A stretch of 64,000 nt of DNA from Patescibacteria group bacterium (GCA_028718745.1 JAQULF010000001.1:111078-175077); one strand, 5' to 3'; numbered from the stretch's first letter, positions 31,450 through 36,964 are shown. Program-made: numbers and translations. The notes: generated by a model not told the origin, from the letters alone.

Positions 31450-31596
31450 TTATTTATCGCTAACACTTAAACGCTTTCGGCCTTTTGCCCTTCTTCTGGA
31501 TAAAATCTTTTTGCCATTGGCCGATTTCATGCGATTGCGAAATCCATGAACTTTTAGCTTGCTTCCTCGTTTGTATGCGCCGGTACCTTTTTTCAA
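31450..31596 (-). CDS. rpmH: 50S ribosomal protein L34 (TTG start; not in the ORF track, 48 aa)
   Basis: Manual translation [48 protein letters not shown] (…HGFR.RM….G…[10 protein letters not shown]) is diagnostic L34; RBS AGGAGG 5 nt upstream. Confidence 0.8.
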
Positions 31597-31753
31597 AACT
31601 TCCTCCTAAAAAATATTATATAATAAGAAGTTTTGCCCTCCGAAGTTCACACTGGAAATAACAGAATGTAATTCGTTTTTCCAGTAAGAATGAAGGATGG
31701 GCTGCTATCTTATAATATAAAGGTTAATAAATAATGCTTAACACCATCTAATT

Positions 31754-32833
31754 CTAACTGCTACGACCCTTTTTGTCAATTAAATCTGATAACTCTTTTG
31801 TTAATTTCCAGCCCTCACAGTGTTTTAAAACCCCAAAATAAGACTGTCGAATTTGCTCAAATGATTCTTGGCTAATAACTTTTTGATCTAATAGTCTCTT
31901 TTTTGCTCTCAACTTCTTAAACATTCTTTTCTTGGTCTTCGTTCGGAGAATTTTGTGATACGGAAAAACCACATATCCCAAAAAATCAATTCCTTGATTT
32001 GGTTTGCGGATAATGGTTTTGTCAGGATGTAATTGCAACTTAAGGTTGTCTTTTATAAAATCGCCGACCGCATCCTGTAGGGAACAGCCATGGCTGTTCC
32101 CTACCGAATACAATATCACAAAATCATCACAATACCGGGCATACGATTTAACCTTTAAGCGATGTTTTACAAACTGATCTAATTCGTTCAAGTAGATATT
32201 GGCAAAAAGTTGCGAGGTAAGATTGCCCAGCGGAATCCCCGTACTCTCTCTCTCTCTCTCGTTTTGTTTTGTGTTAAACGAATCGATTGTTTCTTTAACT
32301 AACCACAAAACATTCTCATCTTTGATTTTCTTTTTAATTAAATCAAACAATATCTCATGGTCAACGGACGCGAAAAATTTTTTGATGTCTAATTTAATGA
32401 TGACACGATAATATTTTACTTCCCCTGTAGAGACACGCCATGGCGTGTCTCTACGAAGAAAACTCTGCAATCGATCTACTGCCTTATGTGTTCCTTTTTC
32501 GTTTCTGCAGGAATATGAATCATGGATAAATGTTTTGTCGAAGATAGGATAGAGGATTCTATAAATAGCGTGATGAACTATGCGATCTTTCACAGTAGCT
32601 TTGTGAATGTGCCGTCTTTTTGGATCATTGATAAAAAATGAGGTATAATGGCTATGCTTATAGGTTTTAGATTTAAGCTCCTCGTGAAGATTAAAGAGAT
32701 TATCTTCAAGATGTAGCTCAAATTCTTGGACATCTTTCTTTTTTCTTTTCCCTTTTTTAAATTCATTCCAACTACAAAATAAATTATCAATACTAATAAT
32801 TTGGGAGAATAAATTATCATGGAGAATTTTCAT
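31754..32833 (-). CDS. diversity-generating retroelement (DGR) reverse transcriptase, with two in-frame palindromic element insertions; probable start at Met36 of the track ORF (32831-32833)
   Basis: RT motifs RRHIHKATVKDRIVHHAIYRIL (dom 1-2), YYRVIIKLDIKKFFASVDH (dom 3), GIPLGNLTSQLFANIYLNELD (dom 4, DGR-specific [IVL]GxxxSQ instead of QGxxxSP), YARYCDDFVIL (YxDD); adjacent avd, TR and VR. Confidence 0.85.
   Translation of the reverse strand: MKILHDNLFSQIISIDNLFCSWNEFKKGKRKKKDVQEFELHLEDNLFNLHEELKSKTYKHSHYTSFFINDPKRRHIHKATVKDRIVHHAIYRILYPIFDKTFIHDSYSCRNEKGTHKAVDRLQSFLRRDTPWRVSTGEVKYYRVIIKLDIKKFFASVDHEILFDLIKKKIKDENVLWLVKETIDSFNTKQNERERESTGIPLGNLTSQLFANIYLNELDQFVKHRLKVKSYARYCDDFVILYSVGNSHGCSLQDAVGDFIKDNLKLQLHPDKTIIRKPNQGIDFLGYVVFPYHKILRTKTKKRMFKKLRAKKRLLDQKVISQESFEQIRQSYFGVLKHCEGWKLTKELSDLIDKKGRSS
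32077..32104. repeat. GC-rich palindromic element GTAGGGAACAGCCATGGCTGTTCCCTAC inserted in frame in the RT gene (encodes …VGNSHGCSL…)
   Basis: Perfect 28-bp palindrome; core identical to the comF copy at 14493. Confidence 0.7.
32427..32454. repeat. GC-rich palindromic element GTAGAGACACGCCATGGCGTGTCTCTAC inserted in frame in the RT gene (encodes …DTPWRVSTGE…)
   Basis: Perfect 28-bp palindrome with the same GTAG / CTAC termini and central CCATGG. Confidence 0.7.
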
Positions 32834-33172
32834 AGTCCGTCTATTATTCAGAAGGTTTATGATTTCTATGCTGAACTTTATTTGGTGGTAGAAAAGATGC
32901 CCAAGAAAGACAAATATGCCCTGGGCGAGAAACTGCAAAAAATCACTTTGGATTTTCTGGAATTGCTAATCACTGCCAGCAATAAATCAAAAGATAAAAA
33001 ATATCCCTTCATGGAATTAGCTAGTACAAAGCTTGAAGTTCTGAAAATTACTATCCGACTCTCACATGAAGTTAAAGCGATACCAACGAGCAAATATCAT
33101 TCTCTGGAAGAAAGACTTCAGGAAATTGGTAGGATGCTTGGGGGATGGATAAACTCAATAAAAACACCTTGA
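32819..33172 (+). CDS. avd: DGR accessory variability determinant (Avd), four-helix-bundle protein; encoded divergently to the RT, with start codons overlapping by 15 nt
   Basis: 117 aa; C-terminus EERLQEIGRMLGGWINSIKTP parallels Bordetella phage bAvd …AEVGRILGSWIARVNRK; N-terminal IIQKVYDFYAELYLVVEKMPKKDKYALGEKL parallels bAvd helix 1-2. Confidence 0.7.
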   Translation: MENFHSPSIIQKVYDFYAELYLVVEKMPKKDKYALGEKLQKITLDFLELLITASNKSKDKKYPFMELASTKLEVLKITIRLSHEVKAIPTSKYHSLEERLQEIGRMLGGWINSIKTP

Positions 33173-33203
33173 TTGGTGTTTTTATTTTTTGCTTAGAGAC
33201 TAT

Positions 33204-33310
33204 CTCGACGGCGGCACCGATGTTGTCATTGGCATTCTCGGGATTCCAGTTGTCGTTGACATTGAGGCTGTCGTTGTTGAAGTTGACATTCAGCGGACGC
33301 TCGTCGTAAA
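33204..33310 (-). repeat. DGR template repeat (TR), 107 bp
   Basis: Aligns to VR 33663-33766; all 13 substitutions are TR T (plus strand, = A on the coding minus strand) versus VR A/G/C; one 3-nt in-frame indel. Conceptual translation of TR gives an Asn(AAY)-rich peptide YDERPLNVNFNNDSLNVNDNWNPENANDNIGAAVE versus VR YDERPLHVIFY-DSLDVYDYWHPENAHGLIGAAVE. Confidence 0.85.
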
Positions 33311-33577
33311 GTGCCTTTTTCCATCTATTATCACCACTCCTTGATAAACTCTCAGAGTTGAATTTTATTTGGCGGCACCCCAACGATATGTCGGAGATCC
33401 GCACCAGAAAAAGACACGGAGTTTCTAAGCAATTCTTTCGCGCTCTTCCGATGTCTAATAGATAGACGACCGGAACTCTGGCTACTTGATACTTAGGATT
33501 TCGGCGGCCTGGATTCGTAAACCCAAGCGCTCTACCTAATCTCAAGAACATTTTAGCAGAAATAAGGCAAAAAGAAA

Positions 33578-33604
33578 GGGGCAAACGCTTTCGCGTTTGC
33601 CCCA
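33578..33604 (-). terminator. strong hairpin GGGGCAAACGC-gaaa-GCGTTTGCCCC + T-tract immediately downstream of the VR/target gene (terminator; possibly the DGR homing-associated stem-loop)
   Basis: Minus strand: ...ttcttGGGGCAAACGCgaaaGCGTTTGCCCCtttctttttgcc. Confidence 0.7.
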
Positions 33605-33635
33605 AGAAACCAAGGATTCAAAAGAAATCCGAGAA

Positions 33636-34604
33636 TCAGGCGGCAAGTTCCAGAGGAACTCCCTCGACGGCGGCACCGATGAGGCCATGGGCATTCTCGG
33701 GATGCCAGTAGTCGTAGACATCGAGGCTGTCGTAGAAGATGACATGCAGCGGACGCTCGTCGTAAATGGTGCTGGTGCGAGCCCATGTTGATGTTCTGAA
33801 CTTCCGGTAGTTGATGGCGAGCAGGAGCATCATGAGCGCGTCGGAGGTAACCGAAGAATTTATCAGGCCGTGTTCCTTTGTAACTTTCTGTTGATTTTCC
33901 CAGCGCTTCTTTGTGGTAAAAGCGGGGAAATCAACATAACTGATGCGCCAGCGCTCCGAGTCTGTGGCCGGTACATGCGGCCAGCCCTCAATGCCCTGTT
34001 TGATGAACCAGTTGCTGTAGTCAATGCCCGGGCGTATGATTCCGGGACCGAGACCGTCATGCTGGACTCCGAACCAGTTGTAAAGATTGACCAGCGATGT
34101 CTTATGCCTCGCTACACCGAAAAGCTCCAATTGAAGTACGGGAATGCAGTTCCACTCCGGTCTTTTGCAAAGCTCCACCAGCTTTCGGAGCAGCTCGGGC
34201 GTCCATGCCTCGGGCAGAGGAACTTCGGGAACCCAGCCCTTATCGAGATTCAGCGGATTTTCGCCGTTGGGACCCGTCATCGCTTTCTCCCATTCCGCCG
34301 CGCCGACGACTAGAAGCCCGTCGATTGCTCGGTAAGGCGCGAGCGGATCGAGCAGGTCGTCGAGGTTGATTTCGTCGCGAGTTATCGCTTCGAAAAATCG
34401 GGCGAGAAGATCGGGTTCGATGTCGACGCTATCGGGAAGAAGAACAGCTCTTCCTTTCGTGGTTTTTACAACCCCTGACCTGAAAAATTCCTGGATGGCC
34501 TTTTTGTCTTTGAGGCGTTCGGCCATCTGCGCACAGGTTACCTTACCGTCACGGATTGTGGTCAACAGTTCTATGTCTTGACCGGACGTTATCGGCTTAC
34601 TCAT
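33636..34604 (-). CDS. DGR target (variable) protein; GC-rich ORF whose C-terminal ~35 residues are the variable region, presumably in a C-type-lectin/FGE-like fold
   Basis: C-terminus …TSTIYDERPLHVIFYDSLDVYDYWHPENAHGLIGAAVEGVPLELAA overlaps VR (33663-33766); VR differs from TR only at TR-adenine positions. Confidence 0.8.
   Translation of the reverse strand: MSKPITSGQDIELLTTIRDGKVTCAQMAERLKDKKAIQEFFRSGVVKTTKGRAVLLPDSVDIEPDLLARFFEAITRDEINLDDLLDPLAPYRAIDGLLVVGAAEWEKAMTGPNGENPLNLDKGWVPEVPLPEAWTPELLRKLVELCKRPEWNCIPVLQLELFGVARHKTSLVNLYNWFGVQHDGLGPGIIRPGIDYSNWFIKQGIEGWPHVPATDSERWRISYVDFPAFTTKKRWENQQKVTKEHGLINSSVTSDALMMLLLAINYRKFRTSTWARTSTIYDERPLHVIFYDSLDVYDYWHPENAHGLIGAAVEGVPLELAA
33663..33766 (-). 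repeat. DGR variable repeat (VR), 104 bp, at the 3' end of the target gene
   Basis: See TR; the GC-rich 3' boundary (coding strand …GGGAGTTCCTCTGGAACTTGCCGCC TGA) is the likely IMH. Confidence 0.85.
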
Positions 34605-34755
34605 GGCGCACCTTCCTTTCTCCCATTTAAGGGATAGTTTTGTAAGGTCCGAACCGCAACCTTTATATCAAAATAATAGCATATTCTACAAGAAAATGCA
34701 AGGGGTTGTTGTTTAATATCCCCAAGGAAACACTTTGGGGATTTAAAAAAGCAAG

Positions 34756-35145
34756 TTGACTTCTGGATTAAACAAAATATATAATGCAATCATGCTAACC
34801 AAAGAAGATATTAAACAACTTACAAAAGTTCTTGCCACCGCAGAAGATGTCAAAGAATTGAGGGGGGATGTTAAAGAGCTGAAAACAGATGTTACTGGGC
34901 TAAAGACGGATGTTAAAGAGCTGAAAGCACGATCTATCACAACCGAAGAAAGCCTAAAAGATTTAAAGGAAGATGTGCAAGGACTCCGAGAATCTATCCA
35001 AATGTTGACTGTTTCTGTTGATGGTCTGTCAAAATCAATAGAAGATCTTAAAGTGGAATATGCTGCTGTAACAGTAAAACTGCAAAGACATGAGAAGTGG
35101 ATCCAAAAAATAGCTGATAAAATCGGGGTGGGATTAGAATATTAA
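34756..35145 (+). CDS. hypothetical coiled-coil protein with (D/T)VKELK heptad-like repeats (start possibly at Met13, 34792)
   Basis: EDVKELRGDVKELKTDVTGLKTDVKELKARS…; promoter TTGACT-17-ATATAAT upstream. Confidence 0.4.
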   Translation: MTSGLNKIYNAIMLTKEDIKQLTKVLATAEDVKELRGDVKELKTDVTGLKTDVKELKARSITTEESLKDLKEDVQGLRESIQMLTVSVDGLSKSIEDLKVEYAAVTVKLQRHEKWIQKIADKIGVGLEY

Positions 35146-35178
35146 AATCAAAGATCAGAAAACTTTACTTAGACAAAA

Positions 35179-35203
35179 CCTCAAAGTTGAGGCTTATTTT
35201 TTT
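35179..35203 (+). terminator. intrinsic terminator CCTCAA-agt-TGAGG + CTTATTTTTTT
   Basis: Follows the stop of 34756..35145. Confidence 0.55.
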
Positions 35204-35299
35204 GCCCCCTTATAAACACCCTGTGAATAGTCTATTGTAAGTTGTGCATAACTTTGTTAAGATGAAACCAACTGTTAAAAAATCTAAATAAAAAGCTTT

Positions 35300-36658
35300 A
35301 TGGATGTTGAACAACTTTGGACAACCTGCCTGGGGGAACTTGAGGTTTTACTCTCTCGCGCTAACTTTACTACCTGGTTTAAAGATACTTCAGTTGTAAA
35401 AATTGATGGCGATACTGTTACTATCGGAACCCCTAATTCTTTTACTAAAGAATGGTTGGAAAAAAAATATCACAATCAAATCATAGAAACTCTGAACCGC
35501 CAGCTAAAGAATATCCAACGAGTGGAATACATTATTGGCTCCTCCAAGAGTCATCCAAATGATGTAATTATTATCAAAAAAACAAAAGAAACAACTATTT
35601 CGAGCGAGATTGGAGGAGAAGAACAGAGCGAAGAGACCGACCTAAACAAGCGCTATACTTTTGAAACTTTCGTTATTGGCGAATCAAACAGACTGGCTCA
35701 TGCCGCCGCCCAGGCCGTAACCAAAAATCCCGGCATAACCTATAATCCTCTCTTTATCTACGGAGGGGTCGGTTTGGGTAAAACTCATTTAATGCAAGCT
35801 ATCGGCAATGAGATAAGAAGAAGAGATAAGAAAAAAAATGTCGTCTACACCACCTGTGAGAAATTTACTAACGAGTTTATCTCGATGGTTCGGAAGGGTA
35901 AGGCCGAGCAGTTCAAAAATAATTACCGCAACGCTGACGCACTTTTGATTGACGACATTCAATTCCTAGCCGGCAAATCCGGGACACAGGAGGAGTTTTT
36001 CCATACTTTTAATGAGTTGCACGGCAAGTCCAAGCAAATAGTCATGACTTCCGACCGACCTCCCAAGGCCGTTTCGGCGCTGGAAGCCAGATTGGTCTCC
36101 CGATTTGAATGGGGGATGCTGGCCGATATCAATCCTCCGGATCTGGAAACTCGCATCGCTATTTTACAAACCAAAGTAAAAGAAAAAGATGTGAATATCG
36201 GCGAAGATATTGTAAATTTTATCGCTAAAAACATTCAGAATAATATCAGAGAATTAGAGGGAGCCTTAAATAGAATTGTGGCTTATTCCGAATTGAATAA
36301 CGCCGAACCATCGCTCGATGATGTAAAGAGAGTTTTGGGCGAACCATCCGGGCCGGACAGACAAAAAAATATAACCACCAAGGAGATATTAAAAAAGATT
36401 GCCGATTTTTATGATATAACGGTTGATCAAATTTTGGGTCAACGCAGAAATAAAGAGCTGGTTTATCCGCGGCAAATCTGCGCCTATATATTAAGAGAGG
36501 AGTTAAACTATTCTTTTCCTAAAATAGGCAAGGAATTGGGAGGAAAAGATCACACCACTATTATGCATGCCTGCAGTAAAATAGGTAAGGAAATGCAGAT
36601 AAATGAGGTTTTAAAGCATGAATTAAATAGTATTAAGGAGAAGCTTTATTCGTTATAG
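35300..36658 (+). CDS. dnaA: chromosomal replication initiator protein DnaA
   Basis: WTTCLGELEVLLSRANFTTWF (domain I), NPLFIYGGVGLGKTHLMQAIGNE (Walker A), LLIDDIQFLAGK, C-terminal HTH …KDHTTIMHACSKI. Confidence 0.95.
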   Translation: MDVEQLWTTCLGELEVLLSRANFTTWFKDTSVVKIDGDTVTIGTPNSFTKEWLEKKYHNQIIETLNRQLKNIQRVEYIIGSSKSHPNDVIIIKKTKETTISSEIGGEEQSEETDLNKRYTFETFVIGESNRLAHAAAQAVTKNPGITYNPLFIYGGVGLGKTHLMQAIGNEIRRRDKKKNVVYTTCEKFTNEFISMVRKGKAEQFKNNYRNADALLIDDIQFLAGKSGTQEEFFHTFNELHGKSKQIVMTSDRPPKAVSALEARLVSRFEWGMLADINPPDLETRIAILQTKVKEKDVNIGEDIVNFIAKNIQNNIRELEGALNRIVAYSELNNAEPSLDDVKRVLGEPSGPDRQKNITTKEILKKIADFYDITVDQILGQRRNKELVYPRQICAYILREELNYSFPKIGKELGGKDHTTIMHACSKIGKEMQINEVLKHELNSIKEKLYSL

Positions 36659-36964
36659 AGTTACCAACAGACCATGTGGAAAAGACCGCAGATACTGTGG
36701 AAAAGATGTTTAAAAAAGATTGGAAAGTGGGGACAAAAAACTCATTGCCAAAAATCCTGCTAAAAACATCCACAAGAAGTCGCCGATAAATCCCACACAA
36801 ACAACAACCAGAGCACAACTATTCCACAGCTAAAAACAAGAAAATAAAACCCAAAGAAGCTATTTATAAATCTTATCAACAAAACCAACAGACATTATTA
36901 ATACTACTACTATTTTTATAATTATTTATAATAAAGATAATAATATATTAGAAAGTGAGGAATT
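36659..36964. promoter_or_regulatory. candidate oriC: cluster of DnaA-box-like 9-mers (TGTGGAAAA x2, CATCCACAA, AATCCCACA, ATTCCACAG, AGTGGGGAC) followed by an AT-rich unwinding tract, in the dnaA-dnaN intergenic region
   Basis: ccatGTGGAAAagaccgcagatacTGTGGAAAag…acATCCACAag…aaTCCCACAc…atTCCACAg… then taatactactactatttttataattatttataataaagataataatatatta. Confidence 0.5.

Follow-up and report, generated by a model that had tools for sequence, protein, structure and literature searches.

A B3-type diversity-generating retroelement between rpmH and dnaA in a Patescibacteria genome, with a conserved predicted RNA structure upstream of its template repeat

Components of the retroelement

The window analysed here is a stretch of 64,000 nucleotides from a Patescibacteria group bacterium (GCA_028718745.1, JAQULF010000001.1:111078-175077). 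[quoted passage not shown] The order on the minus strand is target with VR, terminator, the gene of an RNA that contains the TR (TR-RNA), avd (reversed) and RT. The neighbours, identified with Pfam, are yidC, yidD, rnpA and rpmH on one side and dnaA and dnaN on the other. The locus is a genuine, complete DGR between rpmH and dnaA, as an initial annotation of this DNA had proposed. Its genes and repeats are as follows.

31754..32833, minus strand: DGR RT, 359 aa (MKILHDNLF...), ATG at 32833; RVT_1 match with E 8e-22
32819..33172, plus strand: avd, 117 aa, ending in EIGRMLGGWINSIK, divergent from RT; matches NF033474 and PF22296
33204..33310, minus strand: TR, 107 nt with 32 A, encoding an Asn-rich peptide; aligned to VR
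33578..33603, minus strand: target-gene terminator hairpin and T-tract, 11-bp stem (8 GC pairs) with a GAAA loop; from a terminator scan
33636..34604, minus strand: DGR target, 322 aa (NCBI PHU42_00840), GC-rich, C-type-lectin-like fold
33648..33662, minus strand: IMH region of VR, GGAGTTCCTCTGGAA, where TR/VR homology ends, with non-adenine differences
33663..33766, minus strand: VR, 104 nt, the last ~43 codons of the target; aligned to TR

The RT carries both motifs that had been read from it, GNLTSQ and YCDD: LGNLTSQ aligns with IGSLTSQ of the Bordetella phage RT (bRT), and YCDD with YMDD. A longer RT ORF, starting at a TTG and reaching 32938, is probably not used. Among solved structures in the PDB, bRT (8ub7_A) is the best match at 148 bits, compared to at most 92 bits for group II intron RTs. 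The RT has at least 8000 relatives; among the matches listed, the closest are 55–68% identical, and those for which the source names an organism come from Patescibacteria/Parcubacteria. The best NCBIfam match is a group II intron RT/maturase model (TIGR04416), and some database sources call relatives of this RT 'retron-type' or 'LtrA', which would fit an RT of the group II intron or retron type beside a merely coincidental repeat. That reading is refuted, and we give it practically no weight: the TIGR04416 score of 169 bits is far under its cut-off (300), as is that of the retron model NF038233 (52.7 bits, cut-off 235), the DGR RT of BPP-1 outscores all intron RTs by far among solved structures, an Rfam search of 31500-35300 gave no RNA family of group II introns or retrons at E≤1, and Avd, an adenine-only repeat and a lectin-fold target are all present. 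The comparison of DGR, group II and retron RTs that had been suggested as a check is thus decided in favour of the DGR side.

The avd product scores above the curated cut-offs of NF033474 DivGenRetAVD (93.7 bits, cut-off 80) and PF22296 bAvd (81.8 bits, cut-off 40), in keeping with its first description as a 117-aa bAvd-like ORF. Its ATG at 32819 (+) and that of the RT at 32833 (−) are divergent and overlap by 15 nt, also as described. The initial annotation regarded this arrangement as unusual, and here we disagree. Architecture B3, in which the order is TR-(avd)-RT and avd is reversed, makes up 90% of the CPR DGR set of Wu et al. 2018 (PMC5758913), and the divergent avd also occurs in six related or sister loci, with the 15-nt start overlap in three of them (L004 and L209 included) and an overlap of 9 nt in a fourth. 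The locus has the B3 layout in minus-strand order: TR at 33310-33204, avd at 32819-33172 (+) and RT at 32833-31754. A CPR-restricted DGR clade with targets that lack recognisable domains has been reported by Roux et al. 2021 (PMC8144416). The locus is a new example of an already known DGR layout, one that is ordinary for Patescibacteria.

The differences between TR and VR are restricted to adenines. On the minus strand, 33204-33310 and 33663-33766 align as originally reported, and TR encodes an Asn-rich peptide. When mismatches are tabulated by TR base, there are 11 substitutions within these coordinates, all at TR adenines (A>T 5, A>C 4, A>G 2), while 0/75 non-A positions differ; with 32 A in the 107 nt of TR, the chance probability of 11/11 is ∼2e-6. 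The claimed adenine restriction therefore holds, although the number of substitutions is 11 rather than the 13 first counted. Two further differences, just 3′ of these coordinates at 33203 and 33202 (one of them T>G), are not adenine mutagenesis; they are differences between IMH (VR, GAGGGAGT) and IMH* (TR, GAGATAGT). The VR reads GTCGAGGGAGTTCC where the TR reads GTCGAGATAGTCTC, and the same positions differ in six related loci, with IMH function predicted from sequence. The single in-frame indel that had been noticed is a 3-nt deletion in VR relative to TR, inside an AAC-AAC repeat; because of it, the current VR cannot be an unaltered product of the current TR. No second VR was found in the 64-kb window.

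The VR forms the 3′ end of the target gene, at the C-terminus of a 322-aa ORF of 54% GC, and no Pfam or NCBIfam domain was found in the target, both as initially annotated. The proposed check of its fold gave a C-type-lectin-like fold that spans residue ∼90 to the C-terminus, with the VR inside it. We thus find an IMH/IMH* pair, Avd, the RT clade, the adenine-only repeat and a C-terminal VR in a C-type-lectin fold. In a set of 1.84 billion proteins the target family forms 69 clusters at 50% identity, and the protein collection has a single sequence of this target on record. GC content is 35–36% for RT and avd and 39.5% for the window, but target, spacer and TR are GC-rich; it steps up from 35–36% to 46–58% at 33189 and drops back at ∼34620. 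The GC3 of the target is 0.63, compared to 0.36–0.43 in neighbouring genes. Similarly, the targets of related loci have a GC3 of 0.47–0.68 in every locus examined, compared to 0.29–0.35 in host genes, and the targets across the loci examined for GC are only 37–62% identical.

The GC-rich hairpin with T-tract 3′ of VR had been interpreted as a terminator and/or a homing-associated stem-loop. Its sequence identifies it as the terminator of the target gene: it begins 32 nt after the target stop codon, its region has a sub-threshold Rfam match to a terminator-like sRNA model, and homologous loci have a hairpin and T-tract at the same place. The DGR homing hairpin of Guo et al. 2011 has a GRNA loop and lies 4–34 bp from VR. 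The loops in homologous loci are GGAG, TTTT, TTTA or 6 nt long, and thus the GRNA loop is not kept; a homing cruciform at 33578-33603 is possible, but conservation gives it no support.

The RNA domain upstream of the template repeat

Our results go beyond the descriptions that we found only in the structured RNA in the ∼350-nt spacer between VR and TR, which the initial annotation had not noted. Its predicted elements are as follows.

33157..33186, no strand assigned: hairpin just 3′ of TR, flanked on each side by an A/T tract; from a terminator scan, helix 12
33189..33204, minus strand: IMH* and TR 3′ flank, GAUAGUCUCUAAGCAA, template-side strand of a long-range helix, pairing with 33432-33418
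33311..33543, minus strand: structured 5′ domain of TR-RNA, ~230 nt, between target terminator and TR; from nhmmer, RNAalifold and a covariance model
33543-33433, minus strand: two 5′ stem-loop modules of this domain
33432-33418, minus strand: primer-like strand, UUGCUUAGAAACUCC, pairing with 33204-33189, directly 3′ of TR
33416-33404, minus strand: stop-like strand, pairing with 33325-33312, directly upstream of TR
within 33311..33543, minus strand: two internal hairpins around an invariant AAUAAAAU motif
33550..33558, minus strand: putative extended −10 promoter for TR-RNA, TGcTAAAAT, read from a six-locus alignment

The domain is conserved in position and in predicted structure. It was found by nhmmer upstream of TR in 9/9 distinct related loci, and its core in four more loci with the same RT clade. 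Based on RNAalifold and pair counts, 42 of its 85 pairs have compensatory changes, and pairing reaches 90.8%, compared to 39–49% in shifted controls; 0/500 shuffles attained the observed values. The long-range helix between 33432-33418 and 33204-33189 has 14 pairs, 8 of them compensatory, and is 87.9% paired, compared to 22–49% in shifted controls, while 7 pairs of the helix adjoining TR are compensatory. Most of the core of the long-range helix is invariant, and the helix is thus supported in part by conservation rather than covariation; no equivalent pairing was found by eye in the more distant locus L211. A covariance model, R1, places the core directly upstream of TR in five loci outside its training set (L209, L210, L211, L212 and L158) with 38–102 bits, and gives its highest score to the RNA of the window, which was among the model-building sequences. 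In seven loci the differences between IMH and IMH* all fall inside the predicted primer duplex, as expected if that stretch is not copied. Judged by these comparisons, 33543-33311 is a conserved structured RNA.

Searches of Rfam 15, including the RT-1 to RT-19 motifs (Weinberg et al. 2017), gave no match at E≤1 to the RNA at 33543-33156 or to the RNA in eight related loci. The sole match near the RNA is a sub-threshold one to BjrC68, at 33569-33653 in the window and in L138, which lies upstream at the target terminator. Two other Rfam matches, one to a tRNA and one by chance to a microRNA, are at other places in the loci. The accessible portions of Wu et al. 2018 (PMC5758913) and Roux et al. 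2021 (PMC8144416) make no mention of a structured RNA upstream of TR. In CPR DGRs, TR is said to be surrounded by BPP-1-like elements (Handa et al., bioRxiv 10.1101/2023.10.23.563531), and part of our TR-RNA findings may already be catalogued there. The conserved RNA beside the template, which we have not found described, may explain how this class of DGR starts copying.

Sequence elements on both sides suggest the limits of the transcript. In 5/6 aligned loci, TGnTAAAAT or TGnTAATAT precedes the first conserved position of the RNA by ∼7 nt, from which we infer that 33550..33558 is the TR-RNA promoter; a generic sigma-70 scan did not report this element. The hairpin at 33157..33186 reads as a bidirectional terminator, for avd (+) and TR-RNA (−). 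By analogy it is also a candidate Avd-binding stem-loop; such stem-loops are reported just downstream of TR in 207/278 DGRs (Handa et al., bioRxiv 10.1101/2023.10.23.563531). This hairpin is kept with compensatory changes in all related loci, including loci without avd. Three loci (L001, L158 and L205) keep the RNA, TR and hairpin with no avd or RT downstream, and the L001 cassette adjoins a Y1 transposase. BPP-1-type RNA has TR and then a ∼140-nt spacer that primes and binds RT. We did not find such a structured spacer between TR and RT, where there is only the hairpin/terminator and then antisense avd. Since no conserved sequence was found downstream of the hairpin in loci without avd, a downstream spacer is unlikely.

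A model for priming, and its alternatives

We propose that TR-RNA is its own transcription unit, which would run from ∼33543 to ∼33150, from the extended −10 promoter to the terminator common with avd. Because the primer-like strand is predicted to pair 3′ of TR and the adjoining stop-like strand 5′ of TR, TR would be looped out between two adjacent helices, the topology of the BPP-1 template:primer duplex and cPRT Stop duplex. The equivalent of the spacer would lie upstream of TR, in a B3 layout without room for a downstream one. RT-Avd would bind TR-RNA, with Avd on the 3′ hairpin, and the end of the primer-like strand would serve as a primer in cis. From about the G of GUCGAG (33204), copying would proceed 5′-ward through TR with misincorporation at adenines until the stop-like duplex ends cDNA synthesis. 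The cDNA would then replace VR and so diversify the ligand-binding face of a lectin-fold target, intracellular or unanchored, at ∼10–12 Asn-coded positions. We propose the primer role of the upstream strand solely by analogy of topology, from which the primer/stop-duplex mechanism is likewise drawn. A complete DGR of the Patescibacteria (CPR) type B3, this priming model included, is our best explanation of the locus, with a probability of about 0.85.

The 5′ domain might instead be only a scaffold or stabiliser that binds RT or Avd or protects TR-RNA, with priming from nicked target DNA, nicked template RNA or an avd-antisense RNA downstream of the hairpin. In favour of this reading, the structure has good support while its function is assigned by analogy, the primer-like strand ends in C and then G or U where BPP-1 has A, and priming is debated even in the BPP-1 model system, for which priming from nicked template RNA was reportedly proposed by Naorem et al. 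in 2017. Nevertheless, we consider a scaffold role rather unlikely, given that the two helices flank TR exactly like the primer and stop duplexes described from cryo-EM, that the IMH/IMH* differences of seven loci lie inside the predicted duplex, and that loci without avd share no sequence past the hairpin. The GC step at 33189 and the high GC3 of the target could also mean that a GC-rich cassette of target, TR-RNA and TR, possibly mobile, was gained horizontally beside a resident AT-rich avd-RT pair. The cassettes without avd or RT in L001 (beside the transposase), L158 and L205 would fit such a gain, as would the RT identity of ∼80% between the window and L004 (a rough estimate from N-termini only) next to a target identity of 46%. 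However, target GC is raised in every locus examined, which looks maintained rather than the product of repeated recent transfer, and in loci whose targets are different ones the RNA domain tracks the RT clade, implying long co-evolution of RNA and RT; a mosaic origin is therefore improbable.

The element could also be dormant or decaying, its TR/VR differences a fossil of past activity and its target no longer diversified. Fresh homing would erase the 3-nt VR deletion, no variants of the target are on record, and decay is seen in related loci: L138 has a split RT and a TR that has lost its A-richness, the L204 RT is broken into two ORFs, and in L207 an IS stands in place of the RT. We nonetheless think dormancy unlikely. 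The RT ORF, whose catalytic and DGR-specific motifs align with those of bRT, is intact, as are Avd and the RNA domain, which has the top covariance-model score (though among model-building sequences); the lack of any difference at non-A positions argues for recent homing or strong maintenance; and RT slippage during homing could also give a deletion in an AAC-AAC repeat. Elsewhere in the family, TR/VR differences are adenine-only in L158 (14/14) and L204 (20/20) and adenine-dominated in L001 (10/12) and L207 (15/19). Ten natural variants of a sister target, P0005, differ at 4/280 residues outside the VR, three of which form a linked haplotype, and are hypervariable at VR positions, an indirect sign that VR diversification is ongoing.

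If the proposed priming model applies generally, Patescibacteria B3 DGRs, the most numerous DGR class in nature, would use a circularly permuted, separately transcribed DGR RNA of ∼390 nt, a tentative generalization that we hold at slightly less than even odds. In such an RNA the equivalents of the BPP-1 spacer (primer strand, stop strand and protein-binding hairpins) would lie 5′ of TR, and the RNA would be self-contained, with promoter, 5′ domain, TR, hairpin and terminator. It could then work with an RT-Avd pair encoded elsewhere, and the reversed avd, the orphan target-plus-TR cassettes and the occurrence of the same scaffold with a different TR would all be explained.

Comparison with known systems

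The closest counterparts are the CPR B3 DGRs (PMC5758913) and DGR clade 2 (PMC8144416). As far as these accounts were accessible, they agree with the locus in gene order, orientation, the reversed avd between TR and RT, host phylum, a target without recognisable N-terminal domain or transmembrane segment, and an RT in a very large clade, from Patescibacteria/Parcubacteria where the organism is given. We noted no gene-level difference from them; the target family is rare.

With the BPP-1 DGR (mtd-avd-TR-brt) the locus shares the RT (matching at 148 bits, catalytic and fingers motifs included), the pentameric-type Avd family, adenine-specific transfer from TR to VR, IMH/IMH* and a GC hairpin downstream of VR. 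It differs in having an inverted avd between TR and RT and no TR-RT spacer. In addition, TR and RT are probably transcribed separately, the element is cellular rather than phage-borne, and the target is not a tail fibre. The post-VR hairpin is ∼45 nt from VR, outside the 4–34 bp of Guo et al. 2011, and its GRNA loop is not kept in relatives. The BPP-1 DGR RNA, as described for the bRT-Avd:RNA cryo-EM structures (Handa et al., bioRxiv 10.1101/2023.10.23.563531; PDB 8ub7), consists of the avd 3′ end, TR and Sp. In that RNA, as in the one predicted here, one strand pairs with the TR 3′ end, the next strand, after 1–2 nt, pairs just upstream of TR, a stem-loop stands directly 3′ of TR at the position of the Avd-binding stem-loop, and the IMH* stretch within the primer duplex is not transferred to VR. 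The order is permuted, however: the primer-like strand, the stop-like strand and the accessory hairpins are 5′ rather than 3′ of TR, and the RNA would end at a terminator ∼50 nt after TR. The two RNAs share no sequence similarity, and C stands at the position of the priming A56.

Retrons, which are not known to have Avd, adenine mutagenesis, VR or homing, belong to a different RT clade, the retron model NF038233 scoring far below its cut-off here. The retron ncRNA (msr-msd) has its priming strand 5′ of the template, as we propose for TR-RNA, and its a1/a2 long-range helix joins the priming strand to the 3′ flank of the template with structured hairpins between, an arrangement also predicted here.

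A DGR of the B3 class at the rpmH-dnaA junction

The locus is a diversity-generating retroelement (DGR) and an ordinary member of the B3 class known from the Patescibacteria (CPR). Its features are as follows, in window positions.

34604-33636, minus strand: target ORF (322 aa, PHU42_00840)
33603-33578, minus strand: hairpin and T-tract after the target
between the 33603-33578 hairpin and the TR, in minus-strand reading order: spacer of ~270 nt
33310-33204, minus strand: template repeat (TR)
33186-33157, in minus-strand reading order: second hairpin, 3' of the TR
32819-33172, plus strand: avd
32833-31754, minus strand: reverse transcriptase (RT)

The placement of the element between rpmH and dnaA in the initial annotation is borne out by Pfam, which gives yidC, yidD, rnpA and rpmH on one flank and dnaA and dnaN on the other. 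The assignment of the RT to the DGR kind also holds: the protein matches RVT_1, its LGNLTSQ aligns with IGSLTSQ and its YCDD with YMDD of the Bordetella phage DGR RT, and that enzyme is the closest of all solved structures (8ub7_A, 148 bits, E 3e-42), while no group II intron RT scores above 92 bits. In the proposed check against group II intron and retron profiles, the NCBIfam models for both were far below their cut-offs. Relatives of the RT number at least 8000, and identity to the closest of them is 55-68%; the organism, where the source gives one, belongs to the Patescibacteria/Parcubacteria. Similarly, the 117-aa ORF read as Avd matches the corresponding models above their cut-offs (NF033474, 93.7 against 80; PF22296, 81.8 against 40).

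The divergent avd had been considered unusual, but it is the norm of the class in this phylum; in the scheme of Wu et al. 2018 (PMC5758913), the order TR-(avd)-RT with a reversed avd is architecture B3. Among the related loci fetched for comparison, L004 has this layout, and its avd and RT start codons overlap by 15 nt as in the window; L138 and L204 share the layout, and in L122 an antisense avd directly follows the TR. Three more loci (L209, L210 and L211), with RTs 60-68% identical and other targets, have the B3 layout, their avd and RT starts overlapping by 15, 9 and 0 nt. The locus as such is one further CPR DGR among thousands; B3 is the largest DGR class, and the locus is of moderate interest solely through the RNA domain upstream of its TR.

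We found nothing to indicate that the element interrupts the replication origin, in that the GC skew has no clear minimum at the locus and DnaA-box-like sites are not enriched in the window (23 found, 15 expected). One-mismatch sites cluster in the dnaA-dnaN spacer (36675-36881, also 35243) and not between rpmH and dnaA, so the origin, to judge from sites that are not significantly above chance, may lie downstream of dnaA and be uninterrupted by the DGR. A 129-aa ORF between the target and dnaA (34756-35145, plus strand) is predicted to be almost wholly coiled coil. It repeats heptads of the DVKELK type and has numerous weak matches to coiled-coil Pfam families; the top sigma-70-like site of the region (11/12) is located at this ORF (34756-34785).

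Adenine-specific diversification and the target protein

Local alignment reproduced the coordinates of the TR and the variable repeat (VR). The initial annotation had counted 13 substitutions, all at TR adenines; within these coordinates the restriction to adenine stands, but the count is 11 (five A>T, four A>C and two A>G). Since 32 of the 107 nt of the TR are A, the chance probability that 11/11 substitutions fall at A is ~2e-6, and 0/75 non-A positions differ from the VR. The additional two differences, at 33203 and 33202, are just 3' of the repeat, and one is T>G; they are the difference between IMH and IMH*, the sequences at the 3' ends of the VR (GAGGGAGT) and the TR (GAGATAGT). An adenine-masked scan of the window found no other VR. 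The VR is one AAC codon (3 nt) shorter than the TR in an AAC-AAC repeat (TR 33275-33283, VR 33734-33739); related TRs have the longer form, and therefore the deletion is in the VR, where it probably arose by RT slippage or by later deletion. With this deletion, the VR as it now stands is not a plain product of copying the TR in its current form.

In related loci, adenines account for 14/14 (L158), 20/20 (L204), 10/12 (L001) and 15/19 (L207) of the TR/VR differences, and L004 has 16 adenine changes and one C>G. The window's own target has one sequence on record. Its sister P0005, the target of L207, belongs to a 90%-identity cluster of 27 members; the ten that are full-length differ at 4 sites in residues 1-280, 3 of which form a linked haplotype, and vary at nearly every Asn-coded VR position. 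This variation, together with the adenine differences, is sequence evidence that the lineage is active in nature. Among the proteins of the P0005 cluster (loci L207, L208) and P0203, P0195, P0200 and P0202, P0203 ends in the TR-encoded tail (…EGISKL) and several others have frameshifted C-termini, which points to either assembly collapse between VR and TR or real recombination.

The target has no recognisable domain by sequence, as initially annotated: neither single-sequence nor profile queries matched Pfam, NCBIfam or PDB. A word-indexed search of 5.8 billion proteins returned 3 relatives and a profile search 9, and an exhaustive profile search of 1.84 billion proteins gave 69 cluster representatives (50% identity). 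With a 4-sequence alignment AlphaFold reached a pLDDT of 37; with 43 sequences from the exhaustive search the pLDDT was 87.8 and the pTM 0.81, with residues 90-320 at ~97. The matches to this model include dozens of animal C-type lectin domains. A C-type-lectin fold, which the initial annotation had proposed looking for in a predicted structure, is thereby assigned at moderate confidence, because Foldseek of the model against PDB gave no significant match. We saw no signal peptide or hydrophobic segment in the target, in agreement with the CPR targets described by Roux et al. 2021 (PMC8144416). The window's target belongs to a small, previously unannotated family of putative lectin-fold targets. 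At the N-terminus, most members (alignment A4, P0004-P0009) carry a conserved segment rich in Cys and His (…VVRCGE…RRKC…C(D/E)NGHEF…), which resembles a small zinc-binding module; this end of the protein is different in the window's target, P0002 and P0003, and is modelled at low confidence there.

A conserved structured RNA between the target and the TR

The stretch between the target terminator and the TR, which the initial annotation had passed over, holds a conserved structured RNA. Its conservation exceeds that of the target gene, and nhmmer finds the domain in 9/9 distinct related loci (the window, L001, L004, L122, L138, L158, L204, L205 and L207), in all nine on the TR strand and abutting the TR. 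When six sequences of just the 5' domain are folded with RNAalifold, 60 pairs result, 32 with compensatory changes, and 92.3% of cells are paired compared to 37-48% with shifted partners, a value that 0/500 shuffles reach. When the TR flanks are included, in a nine-sequence consensus built after removal of the TR interior, there are 85 pairs, 42 of them compensatory, and 90.8% of cells are paired compared to 39-49% in shifted controls.

Two helices flank the TR. In the long-range helix, UUGCUUAGAAACUCC (33432-33418) pairs with the sequence directly 3' of the TR (33204-33189); a gapless mini-alignment of 8 loci is 82.8% paired (versus 20-45%) with 6 compensatory pairs, and with L209 and L210 added the 10 loci have 14 pairs, 87.9% paired (versus 22-49%), 8 of them compensatory, an unpaired bulge column that was padded with N by hand being left out of this count. 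In the helix adjoining the TR, 33416-33404 pairs with the 13-14 nt directly upstream of the TR (33325-33312), with 7 compensatory pairs. The hairpin after the TR (33186-33157), which is the avd terminator on the plus strand, is kept with compensatory changes, also where no avd follows. At the other end, TGnTAAAAT or TGnTAATAT, a putative extended -10 promoter element, is found ~7 nt before the first conserved RNA position in 5/6 loci.

A covariance model of the core (R1; 124 positions, 26 pairs) matches the window once, at 33432-33308. Full-length matches were also obtained directly upstream of the TR in loci outside the building set of the model (L209, 102 bits; L210, 63; L212, 55; L211, 53; L158, 38), and the core is thus a feature of the RT clade rather than of one target family. 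In L212 (325-1640) the core is separated from the RT by a short gap with no space for avd; this locus may be a TR-RT variant in the same clade. Neither the domain of the window nor that of eight related loci has a match in Rfam 15, RT-associated motifs from Weinberg et al. 2017 included, and we found no description of it in the DGR literature as far as this is searchable. A pattern scan of GTDB genomes with CCGAAATCCTN{8,12}GTAGCCAG gave 78 loci, and none of these held up in nhmmer, where the matches were weak and partial (E ≥ 0.001); of 120 loci from the metagenome scan, 4 were true.

Two other readings of the sequence between VR and TR were considered. That the spacer is a degraded, forward-oriented avd was rejected because the compensatory changes are of the RNA type and the indels are not multiples of three. 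The hairpin immediately after the VR had been annotated as a terminator, a homing-associated stem-loop, or both. Its GAAA loop fits the GRNA consensus of the homing cruciform of Guo et al. 2011, but it lies ~45 nt from the VR, outside their range of 4-34 bp, and in relatives the loops are GGAG, TTTT, TTTA or 6 nt, each followed by a T-tract. As the GAAA loop is not conserved, the cruciform was set aside in favour of the more cautious view that the hairpin terminates the target; it may also act in homing, with no support from loop conservation.

The target, the putative TR-RNA and the TR form a GC-rich stretch in every locus, compared to RT, avd and host genes, with targets only 37-62% identical. 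Target GC3 is 0.47-0.68 versus 0.29-0.43 in neighbouring genes, and coding-strand A is 20-27% versus 31-40% in RT, avd and host genes. This composition could be a maintained property or reflect repeated transfer.

GC-rich stretches
Window: 33189-34620
L001: 3911-5522
L004: 80-1523
L005: 296-1228
L158: 2893-4336

Orphan cassettes (L001 3911-5522, L158 2893-4336, L205 7570-9025) consist of a target with VR, terminator, structured RNA, TR and hairpin, with no avd or RT beside them on the fetched stretches. L001 has a Y1 transposase and CTP_transf/GatC genes next to its cassette, and L158 has smpB and tmk. TR/VR differences in these two are still adenine-specific; the RT may act in trans or have been lost recently. 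In L205 (8643-9025) a TR on the same RNA scaffold encodes a classic lectin-type Asn/Gly/Trp-rich peptide and does not correspond to the VR of the target beside it; L122 (908-2535) has no VR for its TR in its 2.7-kb contig, and its upstream ORF encodes an unrelated, very GC-rich protein (GC3 0.72). These two loci suggest that TRs are swappable on a constant RNA scaffold. Decay is seen in L138 (205-2235), where the RT is split in two ORFs and the TR copy is not A-rich, has G where the VR has A, and shows 34 mismatches spread over all four bases, a pattern that suggests mutagenesis or drift of the TR itself. In L207 (2552-3681) an IS (rve-family transposase) adjoins avd at the expected place of the RT, apparently a further route of DGR decay in this lineage.

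A proposed model for priming and termination, and comparison with BPP-1 and retrons

[quoted passage not shown] According to Handa et al. (bioRxiv 10.1101/2023.10.23.563531), the BPP-1 RNA runs from an upstream avd segment through the TR and an Avd-binding stem-loop to the primer strand (Sp53-56). This strand is paired with TR118-121, and its A56 2'-OH primes synthesis. The stop strand (Sp59-70) begins 2 nt after the primer strand and pairs with the upstream avd segment, and is followed by a thumb ring and an RT-binding stem-loop. For other DGRs, their survey reached no further than 40 nt to the 5' side of the TR and 100 nt to the 3' side.

Unlike in BPP-1, the primer-like and stop-like strands of the window both lie 5' of the TR, and only a stem-loop comes after it. 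The B3 layout has no space for a spacer downstream of the TR, and loci without avd have no common sequence downstream of the post-TR hairpin. On these grounds we propose a DGR RNA that would be circularly permuted relative to that of BPP-1 and transcribed on its own, apart from the RT. Copying would start just 5' of the primer duplex, near 33204; if so, the differences between IMH and IMH* are expected inside the predicted duplex, and in seven loci all of them are found there.

The RNA layout of the phage element cannot hold for the B3 class, and the upstream RNA, with a covariation-supported secondary structure and defined strands flanking the TR, provides a testable model of cDNA priming and termination in that class. 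The covariance model can be used for annotating TRs in CPR genomes, orphan TRs included, and the predicted compact, separately transcribed template module may be of interest for DGR engineering.

As in the BPP-1 RNA, the two helices of the window flank the TR in the same relative arrangement, with the primer-like and stop-like strands 1 nt apart compared to 2 nt in the phage element. The topology of the window's RNA is one that we take to resemble retron msr-msd RNA.
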